From Wickerhamiella versatilis (taxonomy: Eukaryota), in the NCBI GenBank assembly GCA_030867685.1, contig JAQOWU010000007.1:1674001-1738000 (forward strand): 64,000 bases of DNA, given 5' to 3'. Shown piece by piece: positions 4,533 through 20,926 of this stretch. The translations under genes were made by a program, and so were the position numbers. Numbering within the stretch: position 1 is the first letter of the stretch; the number at the start of each line of letters is the position of its first letter. The notes beneath the pieces were generated by a model. The model was not told the origin of the DNA. It ran no database searches and saw only the letters and a list, made by a program, of their open reading frames with translations.

Positions 4533-4678
4533 TGAAATATTATACACCTCATTCTATCCTCGGTAATTTTGACAAAATAGTTTATCGTTGATGTTACCCT
4601 TACCCTATGTAATTCCGGCTAAGTAAACAAGAGACTTCAACCCCTTTCTTCTAGTTAACCATCGCAGTGGGGAGAACA

Positions 4679-5554
4679 ATGGAAACATCTCTCTTGCAAG
4701 AACTACGACATTATTTAATGGAGACGCATCTGCCTTCTGGTAACTGTTCGGATCCCTACTGTGCAGGAACACGGTCGGATCTCGCTCTGGCTGCTAAGGT
4801 AGGCCAGTCCCTCCTCACACAACTAATGCAAGCGGAAGAACGATTCAAGAAGGCAGAGCATGGACATGAGAAGGAGCTGTCGCTTTTGCGGCATGCGAAT
4901 TACCGGCTCACCCTAGAGAATGAAAATTTGGAAGCCGAACAGCAGCATCTTTATCTTACACTTCAAAACCATGACGATGAAATCAAAGAGCTGAATGAGG
5001 AGCTTCGCCAAGCCAAACGAGATGCTTCCCGATTTAGACGGGCACTTGACTCGGCGCGATCATTGGAAGAGCAGGTAACTCTACTTGAGAAAATGCAAGA
5101 AGCAACCCAACGAGAGCTTGATAATAATCTGGTTGCAACTAGGCTGCCTAGCTCTAGGGTGACTGAATTGGCGGCAGAATCCATAGCGAGCAGGGTCCAC
5201 AGAATGGCTGCAGACCTGGGTCCCCCTTCCGGCTCCGATCCCGACGAAACGCTGGTAGAGGATTCAAGCTTCACAATATCGTCACCAATATATTCAAAGC
5301 CAAAACTTCAACGATCAATGTCTCATGAAAGCGTGCTTGCACCAATGGCCGAGGATATCACCCGTGATACGTCGATACAGAGACCACAGACTTCTAAGGC
5401 TGTCGCTGGACTCAGTGGACATAGTGCGACCGCAAAACCCCTCTCAAAATACCCAATTAATGCTCGTGACCATCTATTGTCTAATGTAAAGGGCCAACCG
5501 CATGCAGATAAATGGTCTTTCGTTCCATTTCGTCGTTCAGCACGAATGGTGTAA
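4679..5554 (+). CDS. Uncharacterised coiled-coil protein with CC1-box-like motif (DLALAAKVGQSLL)
   Basis: 291-aa ORF from ATG 4679: heptad-rich E/Q/L/R segment of about 115 aa, then an S/P-rich tail containing RSMSHES. Confidence 0.7.
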   Translation: METSLLQELRHYLMETHLPSGNCSDPYCAGTRSDLALAAKVGQSLLTQLMQAEERFKKAEHGHEKELSLLRHANYRLTLENENLEAEQQHLYLTLQNHDDEIKELNEELRQAKRDASRFRRALDSARSLEEQVTLLEKMQEATQRELDNNLVATRLPSSRVTELAAESIASRVHRMAADLGPPSGSDPDETLVEDSSFTISSPIYSKPKLQRSMSHESVLAPMAEDITRDTSIQRPQTSKAVAGLSGHSATAKPLSKYPINARDHLLSNVKGQPHADKWSFVPFRRSARMV

Positions 5555-5678: not shown

Positions 5679-7871
5679 TTAGTTATCCCAATTCCTTCGG
5701 AAAATATTACCCCTAACATGTGAAGTCTTCACAACAGGTCTCGGAGGTTTGAGTTGAGGCATCACACGCCTCGGTCGGGATTCTACTGGCTGGCGTGGTC
5801 TACTTGTTGATTTCAGGATTTGGACAGTTTTTGGTCCAGAGGGTGCGAGCTCCGACTGAATTCGCGCGACAGACCTACGAGGAATATTAGGTACTTCTGG
5901 GGGTGGTGCAGCTTTAAGAGACGGGAGTGGCCTAGCTCTTGGCAATACAACGCTCTCTTCCATAGAAAGTGGGCTATCATCTGTAGTTGACATATGATCA
6001 GCCGGCTCTATAAATTTAAGAGATTCATGAATGCTGGCAACGTCCACTGCCTTTGAAACAGCAGCCTTTGGCTTTTTCACAAAGCTGCCTGTGCAGCTCT
6101 CAAAGAATGCACGATTTTTCGGGTTGGCGCTTATTCTTGTCGGTTTGATGAAACTCCTGTCGTTATCTTTCTTCAGAGAATGGACTTCATGCTTTCTCTT
6201 TCGAGATTCTTGTTGAACATAATCGACAAGATGTTCTACAGCACTTTCACTGAGTTGCTTCGCCGGCTTGTCATTATCACTGGGAGGGTTAATATTATCG
6301 TTAACTCCACCAACCTCAGTAGCGTCACCTACCCCATCTCCAGGAGATTTTGGAGACTGCGCTTCGTCCTCCTCGCTTTCGTCCGAATCACTTGAATCAT
6401 CTAGTACCATTCTCTTCTTGCTGGGGGAAGATCCCTTGGCTTGTGAACCAACATTAACTTGAGTGGGTGGGGTTTGTTCGTTCTCCGACTCATTTATATC
6501 TTCTGACCGATCCTTCTCACGTTCCTGCCTGATAAGGAAGAGCCTTCTAACCTCTGCAAGTTCCTGGGATCCTGTAAGACCCATCTCCTTGATTTTGTTC
6601 AAGTCTTCCTGAGTTTCATCGCAGTGTCTCCTTGAGTGCGACTGCTCTTGTGATTGCTCTTGTGACTTCCCTTCTTTTGAAGGAGTGGGTTGCGTTGGTG
6701 TCTCTAACTCCAAGTCTTTTTCCTGAGAAGAGTCCTGGAAGATAGGAGGCGGTTGGTCCTTATCTGCATCGGCATTGGCGTCTGCTCCTGCTACTGCTCC
6801 TGCCTCCGCATTGTGACTGTGGGGCAATGTATCCGGTTCAGAAACATCCGGTACATATTTGTCTGCTTCAGATCTAGCCAAATCAGTGGTAACCTGGCGC
6901 TCATGTTCAAGCAGCGATTTCATATTACGAGGGGGGTTCGGTGGCTGTAAATTTAGCTCCCGCCTTGCCCTCGACTGATCTCTCTGCTTTGACAATAATT
7001 GGCTCGTTAGATCACCAACATTCATAGGCATTTCATTTTGTTGCCCAAGAATAACTTGATCACGCTGAGCAACATTCATACGGGAGGCCTCTGTCGATGG
7101 AACAATCTCTAGGTCATCACCACTAGAATCCGAATCACTTTCTAAACCTTCGGCCATCGATCTGGGAGGAGAACTAGCGACGTAACTCGTCAAATGCTGC
7201 CATTGGGGTAATCGAGGAGTAATAGGTTTGGCCTTTTTAGGCGTTGGTGGAGGTGTCCTTTGGCCGAGAAGGGATGCAAATCCTGAAACTGTTGCTTCAG
7301 CGACTGTGTGTCGCGACACATGTACACCAATTTCTCGCTCTAGCCTATGGTTGACACGTTCGATATCTTCATTTGCCTTATGAGATTCGTAGGAAGTCGG
7401 TCTTTCAGTTACTTCTTCTGGTCGGTCAATGCCAGCATCCGCATACACCCTATCACGTTCATTTAAAGGGGCTTCCAAGTGGTCCGATTCGGCATCTGAA
7501 AGCCATAGACCTGCATCATTTGCACTTGGCGCACTCTCAGACTGCTTAGGCCTAGTTGCTTTGGGACCAGGAATGAGTTTCTCCCCATGGCCAACAGCTT
7601 CACCGTAAGAATCATCAGAGCCCTTCTTCCCCGGGCCATGGCTCAAAAAATCATCATTATTTTCATCAATTAAGTCGTCAATATCCTCCTCTTCATCCGC
7701 ATCTTCATCTTCGTTTCCCTGGTTTTCATTTAATGGACCTGCGACTTGGCTTTGAGTTACTCTCCGTTGTATAAACTCATCATAATCGAAGTCCTCCTCA
7801 TCCAAATTTTCATCATCCTCATCAAGTTGTTTCAATAAATCATCCAGTCTACCAAAATTAGCCAAAGTCAT
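5679..7871 (-). CDS. MRC1: Probable replication checkpoint mediator Mrc1/Claspin-like
   Basis: Acidic, disordered 730 aa with clustered SQ/TQ sites; NPKNRAFFES resembles the Mrc1 C-terminal motif; MCB/SCB boxes lie immediately upstream. Confidence 0.6.
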   Translation of the reverse strand: MTLANFGRLDDLLKQLDEDDENLDEEDFDYDEFIQRRVTQSQVAGPLNENQGNEDEDADEEEDIDDLIDENNDDFLSHGPGKKGSDDSYGEAVGHGEKLIPGPKATRPKQSESAPSANDAGLWLSDAESDHLEAPLNERDRVYADAGIDRPEEVTERPTSYESHKANEDIERVNHRLEREIGVHVSRHTVAEATVSGFASLLGQRTPPPTPKKAKPITPRLPQWQHLTSYVASSPPRSMAEGLESDSDSSGDDLEIVPSTEASRMNVAQRDQVILGQQNEMPMNVGDLTSQLLSKQRDQSRARRELNLQPPNPPRNMKSLLEHERQVTTDLARSEADKYVPDVSEPDTLPHSHNAEAGAVAGADANADADKDQPPPIFQDSSQEKDLELETPTQPTPSKEGKSQEQSQEQSHSRRHCDETQEDLNKIKEMGLTGSQELAEVRRLFLIRQEREKDRSEDINESENEQTPPTQVNVGSQAKGSSPSKKRMVLDDSSDSDESEEDEAQSPKSPGDGVGDATEVGGVNDNINPPSDNDKPAKQLSESAVEHLVDYVQQESRKRKHEVHSLKKDNDRSFIKPTRISANPKNRAFFESCTGSFVKKPKAAVSKAVDVASIHESLKFIEPADHMSTTDDSPLSMEESVVLPRARPLPSLKAAPPPEVPNIPRRSVARIQSELAPSGPKTVQILKSTSRPRQPVESRPRRVMPQLKPPRPVVKTSHVRGNIFRRNWDN

Positions 7872-8435: not shown

Positions 8436-11400
8436 ATGTCGGGCGCTCAGTTTCCGTACTCCTCGGCTCCGCTAAGGGCGGTAAAGGAGGTTCAGTTCGG
8501 TCTCCTGAGCCCCGACGAGATTAAGGCACTGAGCGTTGCAAGGATCGAGTACCCTGAGACCATGGACGAAACGAAGATGCGTCCACGGATAGGGGGCCTC
8601 TCAGATCCGCGCCTCGGTTCTATTGATCGTAATTTCAAATGTCAAACATGTGGTGAGGGCATGGCAGACTGTCCCGGACATTTCGGGCATATAGAGCTTG
8701 CCAAGCCCGTTTTCCATATTGGCTTTGTTACCAAAATAAAAAAAATACTTGAGGCTGTTTGTGTGCATTGCGGCAAGCTCAAAGCTGATGAAAGTAACCC
8801 CGAATTTGCACAGGCCATTAAAATTCGCAACCCAAAGCGTAGGTTTGCAAAAGTTTGGGAAATATGTAAAAAGAAGATGGTATGCGAGGCCGACGTGTAT
8901 GGCGATGAAGGTACAAAGAAAACCGTACACGGAGGGTGTGGCAATGCCCAGCCGCTTATCCGTCGGGATGGGTTGCGTTTATTGGGTCAATGGAAGAAGG
9001 ACAAGTCTCGTGGTGATCAGCCCGAAAAACGATACCTTACACCTTCAGAAATCCTGAATGTGTTCAAACACATAAGTGACAAGGACATTACAAACCTTGG
9101 GCTCGATGTAGACTTTGCACGGCCAGAATGGCTTCTCGTGACGGTCCTGCCGGTTCCACCTCCACCTGTTCGTCCAAGTATTGCCATGAATGAGACGGCT
9201 CGTGGCGAGGACGATTTGACCTACAAGCTTGCAGATATAATTAAGGCAAACGCCAATGTGCAACGTTGTGATACGGAAGGTGCACCAGCACATGTTGTGA
9301 ATGAATTTGAGATGTTGTTACAGTATCACGTTGCCACTTACATGGATAATAACATTGCTGGTCAACCACAAGCATTGCAGAAGTCGGGCCGCCCTGTGAA
9401 ATCTATTCGAGCAAGGTTGAAGGGCAAGGAGGGCCGTCTGCGTGGTAATCTCATGGGTAAACGAGTTAATTTCAGTGCCCGTACTGTCATTACAGGTGAC
9501 CCTAACATTGAGCTTGATCAGGTAGGTGTTCCCAAGTCTATTGCTCGCACTCTCACGTATCCAGAGGCGGTGACTCCATACAATATTCACCGACTTACCC
9601 GTTTTGTTCGAAACGGTCCAAATGAACATCCTGGTGCTAAATACATCATTAGGGACACTGGTGAGCGTATAGACCTGCGTTATCATAAGCGTATCGGTGA
9701 TATTGCGCTGCAATATGGCTGGAAGGTTGAGCGTCATTTAATGGATGATGATCCGGTTCTGTTCAATCGTCAACCCAGTCTGCACAAGATGAGTATGATG
9801 GCTCATCGTGTTAAAGTAATGCCTTATTCCACATTCCGGCTCAATCTTTCTGTGACGAGCCCTTATAATGCAGATTTCGATGGTGATGAGATGAACTTGC
9901 ACGTTCCTCAGTCAGAAGAAACTCGAGCTGAGTTGAGCCAGCTAGCAGCCGTGCCGTTGCAAATTGTCTCACCTCAGTCCAATAAGCCCGTAATGGGAAT
10001 TGTTCAAGACACCCTTTGTGGTATTCGTAAGTTGACTCTCCGAGACACCTTTTTAAACTACGAAATGGTTCAAAATATACTGTTCTGGATTCCAGAATGG
10101 GATGGTGTAGTCCCACCACCAGCAATCTTGAAACCTAAGCCACTATGGACGGGTAAGCAGATGGTGTCGATGACTATCCCTTCAGGTATTTTCATGCAGC
10201 GTTTTGATGACAGTAACCCTGTAACTTCGCCCAAAGACAATGGTATGCTTGTATACAAAGGCAGAGTAATGTATGGCGTTGTTGACAAGAAAACAGTGGG
10301 TTCATCAGCAGGGGGTCTCATTCATACGATTTTTAGGGAGAAGGGACCCTATGTTTGTGCCCAATTTGTTGGCAACATTCAGAAAGTTGTAAATTACTGG
10401 CTTCTTCACAATGGATTTTCTATTGGTATAGGCGATACTATTGCAGATGCTGGGACGGTAGCTAATGTAACCAACACTATCGCCGCTGCAAAAGAGAGGG
10501 TTGAGGACATTACAAAACGTGCCTATGCCAATAAGTTGAATCCAGAACCAGGAATGACATTGCGTGAGTCTTTCGAGCATGCTGTTATCTTGGAGTTGAA
10601 TGGAGCACGTGATACTTCGGGTAGAGAGGCTGAGAACTCACTACAAGACGGCAACAATGTTAAACAAATGGTAAGTGCTGGGTCCAAGGGCTCATTCATT
10701 AACATTTCGCAGATGTCAGCGTGCGTTGGACAGCAAATTGTAGAGGGTAAGCGTATTGGTTTTGGCTTTGCTGATAGAAGTCTCCCTCATTTCACACGTG
10801 ATGATTACAGTCCTGAATCGAAGGGATTTATCGAGAATTCGTACTTGCGTGGACTCAGTCCCCAGGAGTTCTTTTTCCATGCCATGGCTGGTCGTGAAGG
10901 TTTGATTGATACTGCAGTGAAGACTGCAGAGACAGGTTATATTCAAAGACGGCTTGTCAAGGCATTGGAAGATATTATGGTTCAGTATGATGGCTCTGCA
11001 CGTAACTCTCTGGGTGATATTGTTCAGTTTATTTATGGTGAAGATGGCCTGGACGGTGCTCAGGTTGAAAGACAGTCCCTCGATACTATTCCAGGGTCGA
11101 ATGATTCATTCGAGAAGCGTTATCGTGTTGATTTGCTCAATGGTGATAGATTGCGCATTGAGTCGATGGCTGATATTGTTGGTGATCTGGATGTACAGCG
11201 TCTGCTCGATGGAGAATGGCAAAGGCTGTGTGATGACAGACATATGTTAAGAACATTTGTCTTTACCAACGGAGATCACGACAAGCCGCTGCCTGTCAAC
11301 CTTCGCCGCGTTATCCAGAATGCTCAACAAATTTTCAACGTCGACCAGAATCATGTTTCAGACTTAACAGTTCCTGAAATTGTGGATGGTGTGCAACAGC

Positions 11401-13640
11401 TATGCAACAAGCTGGTAGTCGTTCGTGGTGAAGGTGAGACGCTAGACAATGCCCAGGACAATGCAACCACTCTCTTCAGATGCCTTGTTCGCTCACGTCT
11501 AGCAACAAAGAGAATAACAGAAGAGTATCGTCTGACACGCAATGCATTTGAGTGGGTTCTAGGAGATGTTGAGTCGCAGTTCATGCGTAGTCTTGCCCAT
11601 CCAGGTGAGATGGTAGGTGTTGTTGCTGCTCAATCGATTGGTGAGCCAGCAACGCAAATGACACTCAATACTTTCCACTATGCTGGTGTGTCGTCTAAAA
11701 ATGTAACATTGGGTGTACCACGTTTGAAGGAGATTCTCAATGTTGCTAAGACAATTAAGACACCTGCTCTTACGGTTTATCTTCAACCGGAGGTAGCAGG
11801 TGATATTGAACAGGCTAAGGTAGTACAAAGTGCGATCGAACATACGTCACTCAAAGGTGTTACTGCTGTCACAGAGATTTATTACGATCCAGATCCTCGT
11901 ACTACAGTTATTGAAGAGGATCTTGACACTGTTGAGGCTTACTTCTCCATTCCAGATGAACAGGTAGAGGCAACCTTATACATGCAGTCGCCTTGGTTGT
12001 TACGTTTAGAGCTTGATCGTGCTAAGATGCTTGATAAACAACTAACAATGTCTCAAGTTGCCGAGACGATCAGCCAGAGTTTCGCCGGTGATCTTTTCGT
12101 CATGTGGTCTGAAGATAATGCTGAAAAACTGGTGATCCGATGCAGAGTTGTTCGTGATCCGAAGACACTTGACGAAGAAGAGGCTCAAGAAGAGGATCAA
12201 ATGGTGAAACACGTTGAACAGTACATGCTTGACAACATAAGTCTTCGTGGTATTCCAGCAATAACCCGTGTCTTTATGATGGAGGACAAACAAAGGATTA
12301 TCGATCAAAAGACAGGAGACTACGAAACTAAAATGGAGTGGATCCTCGAGACCGATGGTATTAATCTAGGCGAGGTTATGACTGTTCAAGGTGTAGACGC
12401 GCACCGGACATACTCAAACTCTTTCGTTGAGATTTTAGGAGTTCTGGGTATCGAAGCCACTCGAACTGCTTTGTTCCGAGAACTGTCCAAGGTTATTGAA
12501 TTTGATGGTTCTTATGTCAATTATCGCCACATGGCATTGCTTGTGGATGTAATGACATCCCGAGGACATCTGATGGCAATCACACGTCATGGTATCAATC
12601 GTGCAGACACTGGTGCGTTGATGCGCTGCTCCTTCGAGGAAACAGTAGAAATTTTACTTGAAGCCGCAGCAACAGCAGAACTTGATGATTGTCGCGGAGT
12701 CTCAGAGAACATCATGTTGGGCCAGATGGCTCCCCTTGGAACCGGTGCGTTTGAGGTTTATCTTGACGACAAGACTCTTGCCTCGATGCCTGCACCAGAA
12801 ATTGGTGCCATTGATGGGTCTGCGACGCCATATGAGTCGTTTACGCCTGCGCATGATTCCGCGGCAGGTGATGGTGGTGATGCTGCTTTCTCTCCTCTGG
12901 TGGCATCTGGTATGGGTGATGCAGTTACCCGTGGTGGTTTCACTGAATACGGCAGTGCGGCATCTCCATTTACGGCAGCATCTCCGGCCTGGGGTGGCGC
13001 ATCTCCGGCTTTCGGAGCCGCGTCGCCTGCATTTGGAGCTGCATCGCCTGCATTCGGGGCCGCTTCTCCCGCATTTGGGGCCGCTTCTCCTGCCTTTGGA
13101 GCCGCTTCTCCTGCCTTTGGAGCTGCCTCCCCTGCCTACCAGCCATCTTCACCTTCGTTTGGTGGTGTTTCGCCTGCTTATGCGCCATCGCCTGTGTATG
13201 ACCCAGCAGCTTCGGTGTCGCCTAGTTATAGTGCGAGTGGAGCTTACCAGGCTGTCTCACCTAGTTTCAGTCCTACAAGCCCAACATCGCAAAGCCCCTC
13301 GTCGCCGCGTTATTCTCCTGGTGGTTCGCCTACGTCCCCTGCATATGGTGGTTATAGCCCAACATCACCGGCTGCGAATTATAGCCCAACATCACCGGCT
13401 GCAAATTATAGCCCGACTTCACCAGCCGGCTACTCCCCTACGTCGCCTGCTGGTTACTCCCCTACGTCGCCTGCTGCTAATTACAGCCCGACTTCTCCTG
13501 CGGGTTATTCTCCTACTTCACCAGCAGCTTCTTACAGTCCAACCTCTCCAACTTCTTATTCACCAACGTCGCCGGCCGGGCAGTATTCACCAACATCTCC
13601 CCGACCTCCGGCCTCTCCAGAATATAATCCAGATGCGTAA
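8436..13640 (+). CDS. RPB1: RNA polymerase II largest subunit
   Basis: CQTC/CPGHFGH zinc sites, NADFDGD catalytic motif, [14 protein letters not shown]-terminal SP-repeat domain. Confidence 0.99.
13011..13136 (+). repeat. Coding tandem repeat, 6 x 21 bp (FGAASPA), proximal RPB1 CTD
   Basis: Six consecutive FGAASPA units with synonymous codon variation. Confidence 0.95.
13353..13601 (+). repeat. Coding tandem repeat, 10 x YSPTSP cores with 24/27-bp period, distal RPB1 CTD
   Basis: Units [19 protein letters not shown]; Tyr-to-Tyr spacing 9,9,8,8,9,8,9,8,9. Confidence 0.95.
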
Positions 13641-19879: not shown

Positions 19880-20926
19880 ATGACCGACTTTGTTCGCATC
19901 CAAGTATTTGGCTCGCATTTTGAGGTCACATCCCGATACTCTGATCTGGTATTAGTCGGTATGGGCGCCTTCGGGCTGGTCTGTTCTGCAACAGATACTC
20001 TTACGGGTCAACAGGTGGCAGTCAAAAAAATAATGAAACCTTTCAGTACAGCAAGCCTAGCCAAAAGAACATATCGTGAACTTAAGCTTCTAAAGCACCT
20101 CAGGCATGAGAATGTGATATCACTAAGTGATATCTTCATCTCTCCGCTTGAAGACATTTACTTTGTGACCGAGCTACTCGGTACAGATCTGCATCAACTT
20201 CTTCTCAGTCGTCCTTTAGATCCTATGATCATCAAGTATTTTTTTTATCAGATCATGCGTGCTCTTAAATATGTGCATTCTGCTAATGTGGTCCATCGCG
20301 ATTTGAAACCGAGTAATATTTTAGTGAACGAGAATTGTGATATCAAGATATGTGATTTTGGCCTTGCTCGTATTCAAGATCCACAGATGACTGGCTATGT
20401 CTCTACCAGGCATTACCGTGCACCGGAAATTATGTTGAGTTGGCAACGGTACGATACAGAGGTAGATATCTGGTCAGCTGGATGCATTCTGGCCGAAATG
20501 ATTTTGGGAAAACCACTTTTCCCTGGCCAAGACCATATACATCAATTCAGTATTATCACGGAGTTACTGGGGACTCCACCTGAAGAGGTCATATCCGCAA
20601 TTATGAGTGAAAACACGCTTCGTTTTGTACGCTCCCTTCCGCGCAGGCCACGAGTACCATTAGCGACTAAGTTCGCTGGTTGTGAGCCTGAAGTGATAGA
20701 TTTACTTGAAAAGATGTTGATATTTGATCCGCGGGCCCGCATCACGGCAGCAGAGTCTTTGGCCCACCCATATCTCGCTCAGTATCATGAGCCAAGTGAT
20801 GAGCCAGTGGCTGAAGAACCATTTGATTGGTCTTTCAATGGCGCAGACTTGCCAGTAGATACTTGGAAAGTGATGATGTACTCAGAAATCTTAGATTTCC
20901 ATAATGTTGGGCCTGTTGATGAATGA
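19880..20926 (+). CDS. HOG1: Stress-activated MAP kinase Hog1/Sty1
   Basis: [46 protein letters not shown] (TGY motif), [13 protein letters not shown]. Confidence 0.98.

Follow-up and report, generated by a model that had tools for sequence, protein, structure and literature searches.

A compact yeast member of a CC1-box/Vac17-tail family, possibly intermediate between Vac17 and the dynein adaptors of fungi

Introduction

Organelles are carried by myosin V on actin in budding yeasts, and by dynein and kinesin in filamentous fungi and animals. Vac17 (S. cerevisiae YCL063W) is the textbook myosin V receptor of the vacuole, joining Myo2 to Vac8. Among dynein adaptors, JIP3 binds the light intermediate chain (LIC) through its RH1 domain.

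The two ends of Vac17 are described in the excerpted texts of two studies. In the Vac8-Vac17 crystal, Vac17 residues 295-308 lie along ARM4-7 of Vac8 and a helix at 332-340 (L336, F339) clamps H1 and ARM1 (PMC10161063); the motor end is built from a bundle of three helices together with a Myo2-binding peptide, residues 127-147 (bioRxiv 10.1101/2025.03.24.645041). A recent BLAST-based survey, in the sections available, did not recover a Vac17 homologue from Cryptococcus (PMC12734321). On the dynein side, CC1 boxes bind helix 1 of the LIC, as stated in the accessible parts of PMC5841405 and PMC6336354. A recent preprint (bioRxiv 10.64898/2026.04.25.720804), in its excerpted form, places a QxxH motif at +34 to +37 in TRAK and the acidic patch of HBS1 near +61 in TRAK1 and BICD2, states that HBS1 tolerates other chemistries, attributes shielding helices to TRAK1, updates the Spindly consensus to JxxE-phi, and reports that JIP3 does not need its Spindly motif to work.

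Here we analyse a gene in the window, by which we mean the whole stretch of 64,000 nucleotides of Wickerhamiella versatilis DNA under study. Its product, P0001, shares with TRAK1/2, HAP1 and the wider CC1-box class (BICD2, BICDR1, Spindly, CDR2L) a 13-residue box that opens an N-terminal coil; a further likeness, in the long fungal members of its family, is a Spindly-like motif, and an acidic patch about 60 residues past the box may be another. It differs from that class in its coil of ~140-150 aa and in having neither QxxH/Y nor a Spindly motif. The family differs from TRAK and HAP1 in that no member tested reaches the HAP1_N cut-off and in its cargo end, which is Vac17-like instead of Milton/Miro- or Rab-binding. 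JIP3 offers the precedent of a short-coil adaptor that, in the excerpted text, can do without its Spindly motif and without contact at the pointed end; it shows, however, no significant sequence match to P0001 (E 9). Vac17 is approached from the other end of the protein: family tails match the C-terminal third of its profile, which should include the Vac8-binding residues 290-344, and a tail helix with an invariant Leu lies where the HC helix would be expected. In contrast to the bundle and Myo2-binding peptide at the Vac17 N-terminus, P0001 is modelled there as one long helix carrying the CC1 box; in addition, its own tail falls below detection by the Vac17 profile, and the protein ends soon after the tail helix.

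Results

P0001 is encoded by a transcribed, intronless gene

The window ORF at 4679-5554 on the plus strand translates into the 291-aa P0001. RNA-seq reads from X12 (~24% of the run) and X15 (~48%), both filed under this species label, span the ORF from end to end; no read is split by a joint, and read ends fall at 4653-4682. The strains behind these runs are a few percent divergent from the window, and reads map to both strands and thus do not tell the direction of transcription. The gene is thus genuine, transcribed and intronless, and the short form is a real gene. A hidden exon or a longer isoform extending P0001 is ruled out by the read ends and the zero joints in the portions of both runs that were read. 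The gene sits between an upstream neighbour that we take to be PAF1-like and a convergent gene at 5679-7871 on the minus strand, which encodes an acidic, low-complexity protein of 730 aa and is also transcribed. The features of P0001 that are discussed below are as follows.

4679-5554, plus strand: single-exon gene, 291 aa (P0001), compact yeast member of the CC1-box/Vac17-tail family
4682-4723, plus strand: N-terminal helix, residues 2-15, ahead of the box (AlphaFold2)
4754-5209, plus strand: long helix/coiled coil, residues 26-177 (AlphaFold2)
4778-4816, plus strand: CC1-box-like motif DLALAAKVGQSLL, residues 34-46 (A38, A39, G42), candidate site for LIC helix 1
4964-4981, plus strand: acidic patch QNHDDE, ~60 residues past the box
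5231-5272, plus strand: acidic Ser/Thr/Pro linker; T191 invariant in four close homologues
5306-5338, plus strand: LQRSMSHESVL motif, start of the Vac17-like tail
5462-5491, plus strand: tail helix ARDHLLSNVK, residues 262-271 (AlphaFold2); L267 invariant in 16 tails
5513-5536, plus strand: C-terminal aromatic/basic motif WSFVPFRR; W nearly invariant in 16 tails

Two other genes of the window are unusual in their own right. The largest subunit of RNA polymerase II (8436-13640, plus strand) has an atypical CTD, in which YSPTSP units spaced 8-9 residues apart, instead of canonical heptads, follow a run of FGAASPA heptads at the C-terminal end. A Hog1-like kinase (19880-20926, plus strand) has His in place of the usual Tyr.

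P0001 belongs to an unnamed family of Ascomycota

Word-index searches, one of them by phmmer, returned four proteins each, and no longer forms turned up. A profile built from four sequences gave 110 matches at E<=0.001 among 1.84 billion representatives, including Wickerhamiella sorbophila B9G98_02118, Yarrowia lipolytica YALI0E06611p, Sugiyamaella AWJ20_2179 and Sordaria SMAC_05854, as well as Saitoella, Penicillium and Orbilia proteins. All named members are annotated as hypothetical, and the family is an unnamed one of Ascomycota. An animal-type protein with DLELAARIGQ joins the search at E 1.8e-4; this protein (P0093) and two unrelated-looking coils (P0092, P0112) were left out of the 109-row counts given below, and the counts of Spindly and Cys motifs leave out P0099 as well. 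One further member, P0106 (1402 aa), is fused to an unrelated-looking upstream protein, probably through a gene-calling merge.

The common order of motifs is a Cys-rich stretch, the box, the coil, RxxSHES, a short helix whose Leu is invariant, and a Trp motif. A SHES-type motif occurs in 70 of 112 sequences examined, and no row among the 49 with both this motif and the box is shorter than P0001 (291 aa). In a quick tree, built from 67 N-terminal segments only, P0001 groups with its W. sorbophila relative (SH-aLRT 100) within an 11-row clade, which nests in a mostly yeast clade of 28 rows (100), apart from 39 filamentous and other rows. This placement is consistent with vertical descent and suggests a Wickerhamiella/Starmerella-type yeast as the probable source of the DNA; by profile search, motif order and tree, YALI0E06611p, B9G98_02118, AWJ20_2179 and SMAC_05854 are assigned as orthologues of P0001.

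The box is conserved in an extended form

The preliminary description had placed an AAxxG box at 4778-4816, and the motif is indeed found there, as residues 34-46. AAxxG by itself is common: it appears in 7.5% of 20,000 shuffles of P0001 and occurs eight times in 6 of the 32 window ORFs of at least 200 aa. The extended pattern D[LV]xxAAx[LIVM]GQxLL was found in none of the 20,000 shuffles, and the pattern LxxAAx[LIVMYF]GxxL has a single occurrence among the same 32 ORFs, namely P0001. Across the family, 66 of the 109 aligned rows span the box; most of the remaining 43 start at the box or past it, as gene calls that miss a first exon probably would. Strict AAxxG is kept in 57 of the 66 rows, and the remainder comprise seven AGxxG, one SAxxG and one AVxxG, so the conservation among orthologues that had been named as a check holds. 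The clade of P0001 is fast-evolving and strict AAxxG is retained in 11/11 of its rows; the earlier suggestion that the protein might be the relic of an adaptor therefore fits poorly.

The box also resembles that of animal CC1-box adaptors, as proposed at the same time. Nine of the 13 box residues are identical between P0001 and TRAK2, and a 20-row family profile searched against the PDB matched TRAK2 (9dgv) at its CC1 box with E 0.0074, ranking fourth behind three IsdH chains. Seven of 20 members match HAP1_N (PF04849), the best with E 1.8e-6 and 27.8 bits, all of them below the gathering cut-off of 33.9 bits; scores of this kind are inflated by coiled coils, as the IsdH chains ranked above TRAK2 illustrate. 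P0001 itself matches neither HAP1_N nor Vac17 in a Pfam search, and phmmer of P0001 against the PDB gave nothing below E 0.61. The five best ESM Atlas neighbours, all at 0.88, are CDR2L-, BICDL- and HAP1_N-type clusters plus one unnamed cluster, and are treated as a lead only. Foldseek found no match to the P0001 model, a null that is uninformative because the fold is a single helix.

Ahead of the box, the LxxELRxYL-like stretch of the N-terminal helix recurs in P0007, P0009, P0010, P0012 and P0015. By analogy with TRAK1, this helix is possibly one that shields the box. The Cys-rich stretch that precedes the box (window 4727-4762) is eroded in P0001, with C23 and C28 remaining; at least three Cys in the 40 aa before the box are present in 34/35 filamentous rows, 10/15 other yeasts and 4/11 of the P0001 clade. 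The stretch is possibly a metal or lipidation site that is being lost.

The coil is shorter in the yeast form

AlphaFold2, run with a 20-row alignment, predicts helices at residues 2-15, 26-177 and 262-271, the last of them within a disordered tail; the mean pLDDT of the long helix exceeds 90 over residues ~31-150. A crude heptad score gives 137 aa of coil C-terminal to the box. The coil is thus predicted to be ~140-150 aa long, more than the ~115 aa first reported. It contains an LExQxxxLE stretch and the conserved core residues Asn74 and Asn81. The position of QNHDDE resembles that of the HBS1 acidic patches, with D or E at P0001 position 99 (box +61) in 97% of the 109 aligned rows, and would be a candidate counterpart of them; for the QxxH/Y element of HBS1, the 109-row alignment has no conserved counterpart upstream of the patch.

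Filamentous members mostly have ~230 aa of coil past the box, and a Spindly-like LxxE[LIFM] lies at +244 to +263 from the box in 27 of 37 long filamentous rows, vs none of the 24 yeast rows that are long enough to test. The Fisher test for this difference (p 3e-9) was disregarded, since the loss of the motif was probably one event. P0001 lacks a second coil segment as well as a Spindly motif, its only LxxE[LIFM] matches being at residues 5 and 105. Both parts of the caveat attached to the preliminary description, a coil shorter than in activating adaptors and no evident Spindly motif, therefore hold, and P0001 is not classed as an activating adaptor. The precedent of JIP3 makes a short adaptor without a Spindly motif possible.

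Several family tails match the C-terminal part of the Vac17 profile

The RSMSHES of the disordered tail, also noted earlier, falls within 5306-5338, in the region predicted to be disordered. From the 70 rows that have SHES, 16 tails were chosen, each starting at the motif. Nine of the 16 match Pfam Vac17 (PF17321), all of them from profile position 264-266 and mostly up to 333-380, with one reaching 440 of 441. The best match has 29.0 bits (E 8e-7; cut-off 25.8) and is the only one above the cut-off. Of 24,736 Pfam families, Vac17 alone is matched by two or more of these tails. The tail of P0001 and six others gave no match to Pfam Vac17, 51 full-length members gave none at E<=0.01, and the Vac17 profile upstream of position 264 did not match the N-terminal halves of the family. 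A tail profile searched against the PDB found nothing, including the Vac17 peptide of the Vac8 complex.

To link P0001 to the tails that do match, a profile was made from six Vac17-matching tails outside its clade. P0001 scores 22.0 bits over residues 207-257, and the other 50 window ORFs score at most 4.9 bits. None of 1000 shuffles of P0001 reached 22.0 bits; when residues 1-222, and with them SHES, were kept, 2/1000 did, and the average was 14.3. The match ends at residue 257, before the helix at 262-271. From order and spacing, this helix may correspond to the HC helix with which Vac17 clamps H1 and ARM1 of Vac8. The acidic linker would occupy the place of the Vac17 PEST region, given as residues 204-250 in the available text of PMC11586526 and thus N-terminal to the part that matches family tails. 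At the C-terminus, the Trp motif has the form WxFxPF in 9 of the 11 members of the P0001 clade.

A stretch resembling LIC helix 1 follows the tail helix in P0026, P0027, P0060, P0100 and nine further yeast homologues; it is amphipathic (e.g. LSSFFTKL) and could be an autoinhibitory mimic of the LIC or a membrane-binding helix.

Modelling of the box with a fungal LIC

A pattern scan yielded 96 fungal LIC loci, of which 83 carry the helix 1 pattern LxxFFxxL; three of four LIC ORFs tested match Pfam DLIC. These loci look filamentous-fungal and so say nothing on the LIC of this yeast. The LIC tail used for modelling, L044, is a stand-in from another fungus. ESMFold2 of a dimer of P0001 residues 20-110 with L044 gave a weak score of 0.36 (runs 0.36, 0.28 and 0.39) against 0.01 for the best control; the runs share at least 52% of contacts, and the partner pLDDT is at least 63. 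The pass mark is reached by 51/78 solved complexes and 2/108 mismatches, but passes at or below 0.60 include just 5/78 solved complexes and all 4 passing mismatches of 180. Moreover, similar CC1-box complexes have already been solved, and the pass may reflect memory of them. The model weakly suggests that the P0001 box binds fungal LIC helix 1.

In viral contigs, searches with Vac8 and LIC patterns picked up 6 and 7 chance matches, respectively. A fungal Vac8-like gene (L014:182-2101, minus strand), its reading frame broken up by apparent introns, lies on a bacterial MAG contig (Microbacteriaceae) and is most likely contamination; it was left out of the modelling.

Discussion

Our best reading, to which we give a probability of roughly 45%, is that P0001 is the compact yeast orthologue of an Ascomycota-wide organelle-motor adaptor and serves as a vacuole adaptor, its tail binding Vac8 and its box the dynein LIC, as a truncated intermediate towards Vac17. 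As part of this reading, the Vac8-binding half of Vac17 would descend from the same Ascomycota adaptor as P0001. The N-terminal helix would dimerise into a parallel coiled coil, in which the small residues of AAxxG would open a groove for helix 1 of the LIC. The disordered tail, with its SHES motif, extended stretch and short helix, would engage Vac8, an armadillo protein, at the vacuole in the manner of Vac17. Since the Spindly motif, like the second coil segment, has been lost from the yeast form, dynein would be contacted without the dynactin pointed end; the yeast form would tether or weakly activate dynein via LIC and heavy-chain contacts, with vacuole positioning or segregation as the outcome.

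The tail ties the family to Vac17, a link that the preliminary description had missed; it makes the vacuole the likely cargo and myosin V a serious rival motor. P0001 could be the working Vac17 of this yeast, with its tail on Vac8, myosin V on actin cables as its motor, and a box that serves dimer geometry or binds a helix of the protein itself. We regard this as unlikely, while noting that it accounts for the Vac17-like tail and for the absence of the dynactin-reaching half from all 24 yeast rows of sufficient length, and that Y. lipolytica has a class V myosin that moves organelles, according to the excerpted text of PMC2768826. A helix that could fold back on the box is also available in relatives: the LIC-helix-1-like pattern [LW]xx[FLYI][FL]xx[LFW], which was written after viewing the sequences, occurs in 13/22 other-yeast tails where shuffles predict 1.6. 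It is found, however, in 0/11 of the P0001 clade, though the box stays strict there, and no counterpart of the Vac17 three-helix bundle or of the Myo2-binding peptide (127-147) is evident.

The vacuole adaptor with a dynein-binding box is also to be weighed against the possibility that P0001 binds the LIC but serves some other cargo or anchor, such as the cortex, the spindle pole body or an endosome; SHES would then be a site for a kinase or for 14-3-3, and the match to Vac17 would come down to shared short motifs. The tail of P0001 without a match of its own, the large share of its tail-profile score that comes from SHES (14.3 of 22.0 bits), and the unmatched Vac8-bound peptide in the PDB all fit this explanation, but the Vac17 match of the relatives is colinear for 70-170 profile positions beyond SHES, and the tails single out Vac17 from the whole of Pfam; we consider it rather improbable. 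Least credible is a convergent AAxxG in a generic coiled-coil scaffold or a kinesin adaptor with no dynein link, which would suit the commonness of the bare motif, the position of every animal-adaptor profile match under curated cut-offs, the Atlas scores below 0.9 and the Foldseek null, but not the 13-residue context matching TRAK2, the pairing of box and Spindly-like motif at a fixed distance in long members, or the animal-type DLELAARIGQ protein that enters the family search.

Returning to the dynein- and Vac8-binding reading, P0001 may stand midway between the dynein adaptors of fungi and Vac17, with both binding sites putative. What is new here is a short, expressed yeast form in which box and tail are kept and the dynactin-reaching half is lost. 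That CC1-box adaptors had not been described in budding yeasts agrees with the print record as we searched it, mainly outside subscription journals: it contained no fungal CC1-box adaptor, no link between Vac17 and dynein in filamentous fungi and no description of YALI0E06611, and no dynein link to the Wickerhamiella/Starmerella clade appeared among the matches listed.

A wider history can be proposed tentatively, and we hold it as doubtful: Vac17 would descend from a CC1-box dynein activating adaptor that is still full in filamentous ascomycetes; early-branching budding yeasts would keep a truncated LIC- and Vac8-binding intermediate (P0001, maybe a minimal short-coil adaptor); and Saccharomyces would have swapped in a Myo2-binding module. 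The family offers a graded series that is testable in tractable organisms, from the long form (box, 230-aa coil, Spindly-like motif and Vac17-like tail) through the short yeast form, e.g. YALI0E06611p (box, 140-aa coil and Vac17-like tail), to Vac17. With P0001, a budding yeast would have a CC1-box adaptor and, if this history is true, a switch from microtubule to actin motors would be documented within one adaptor family.
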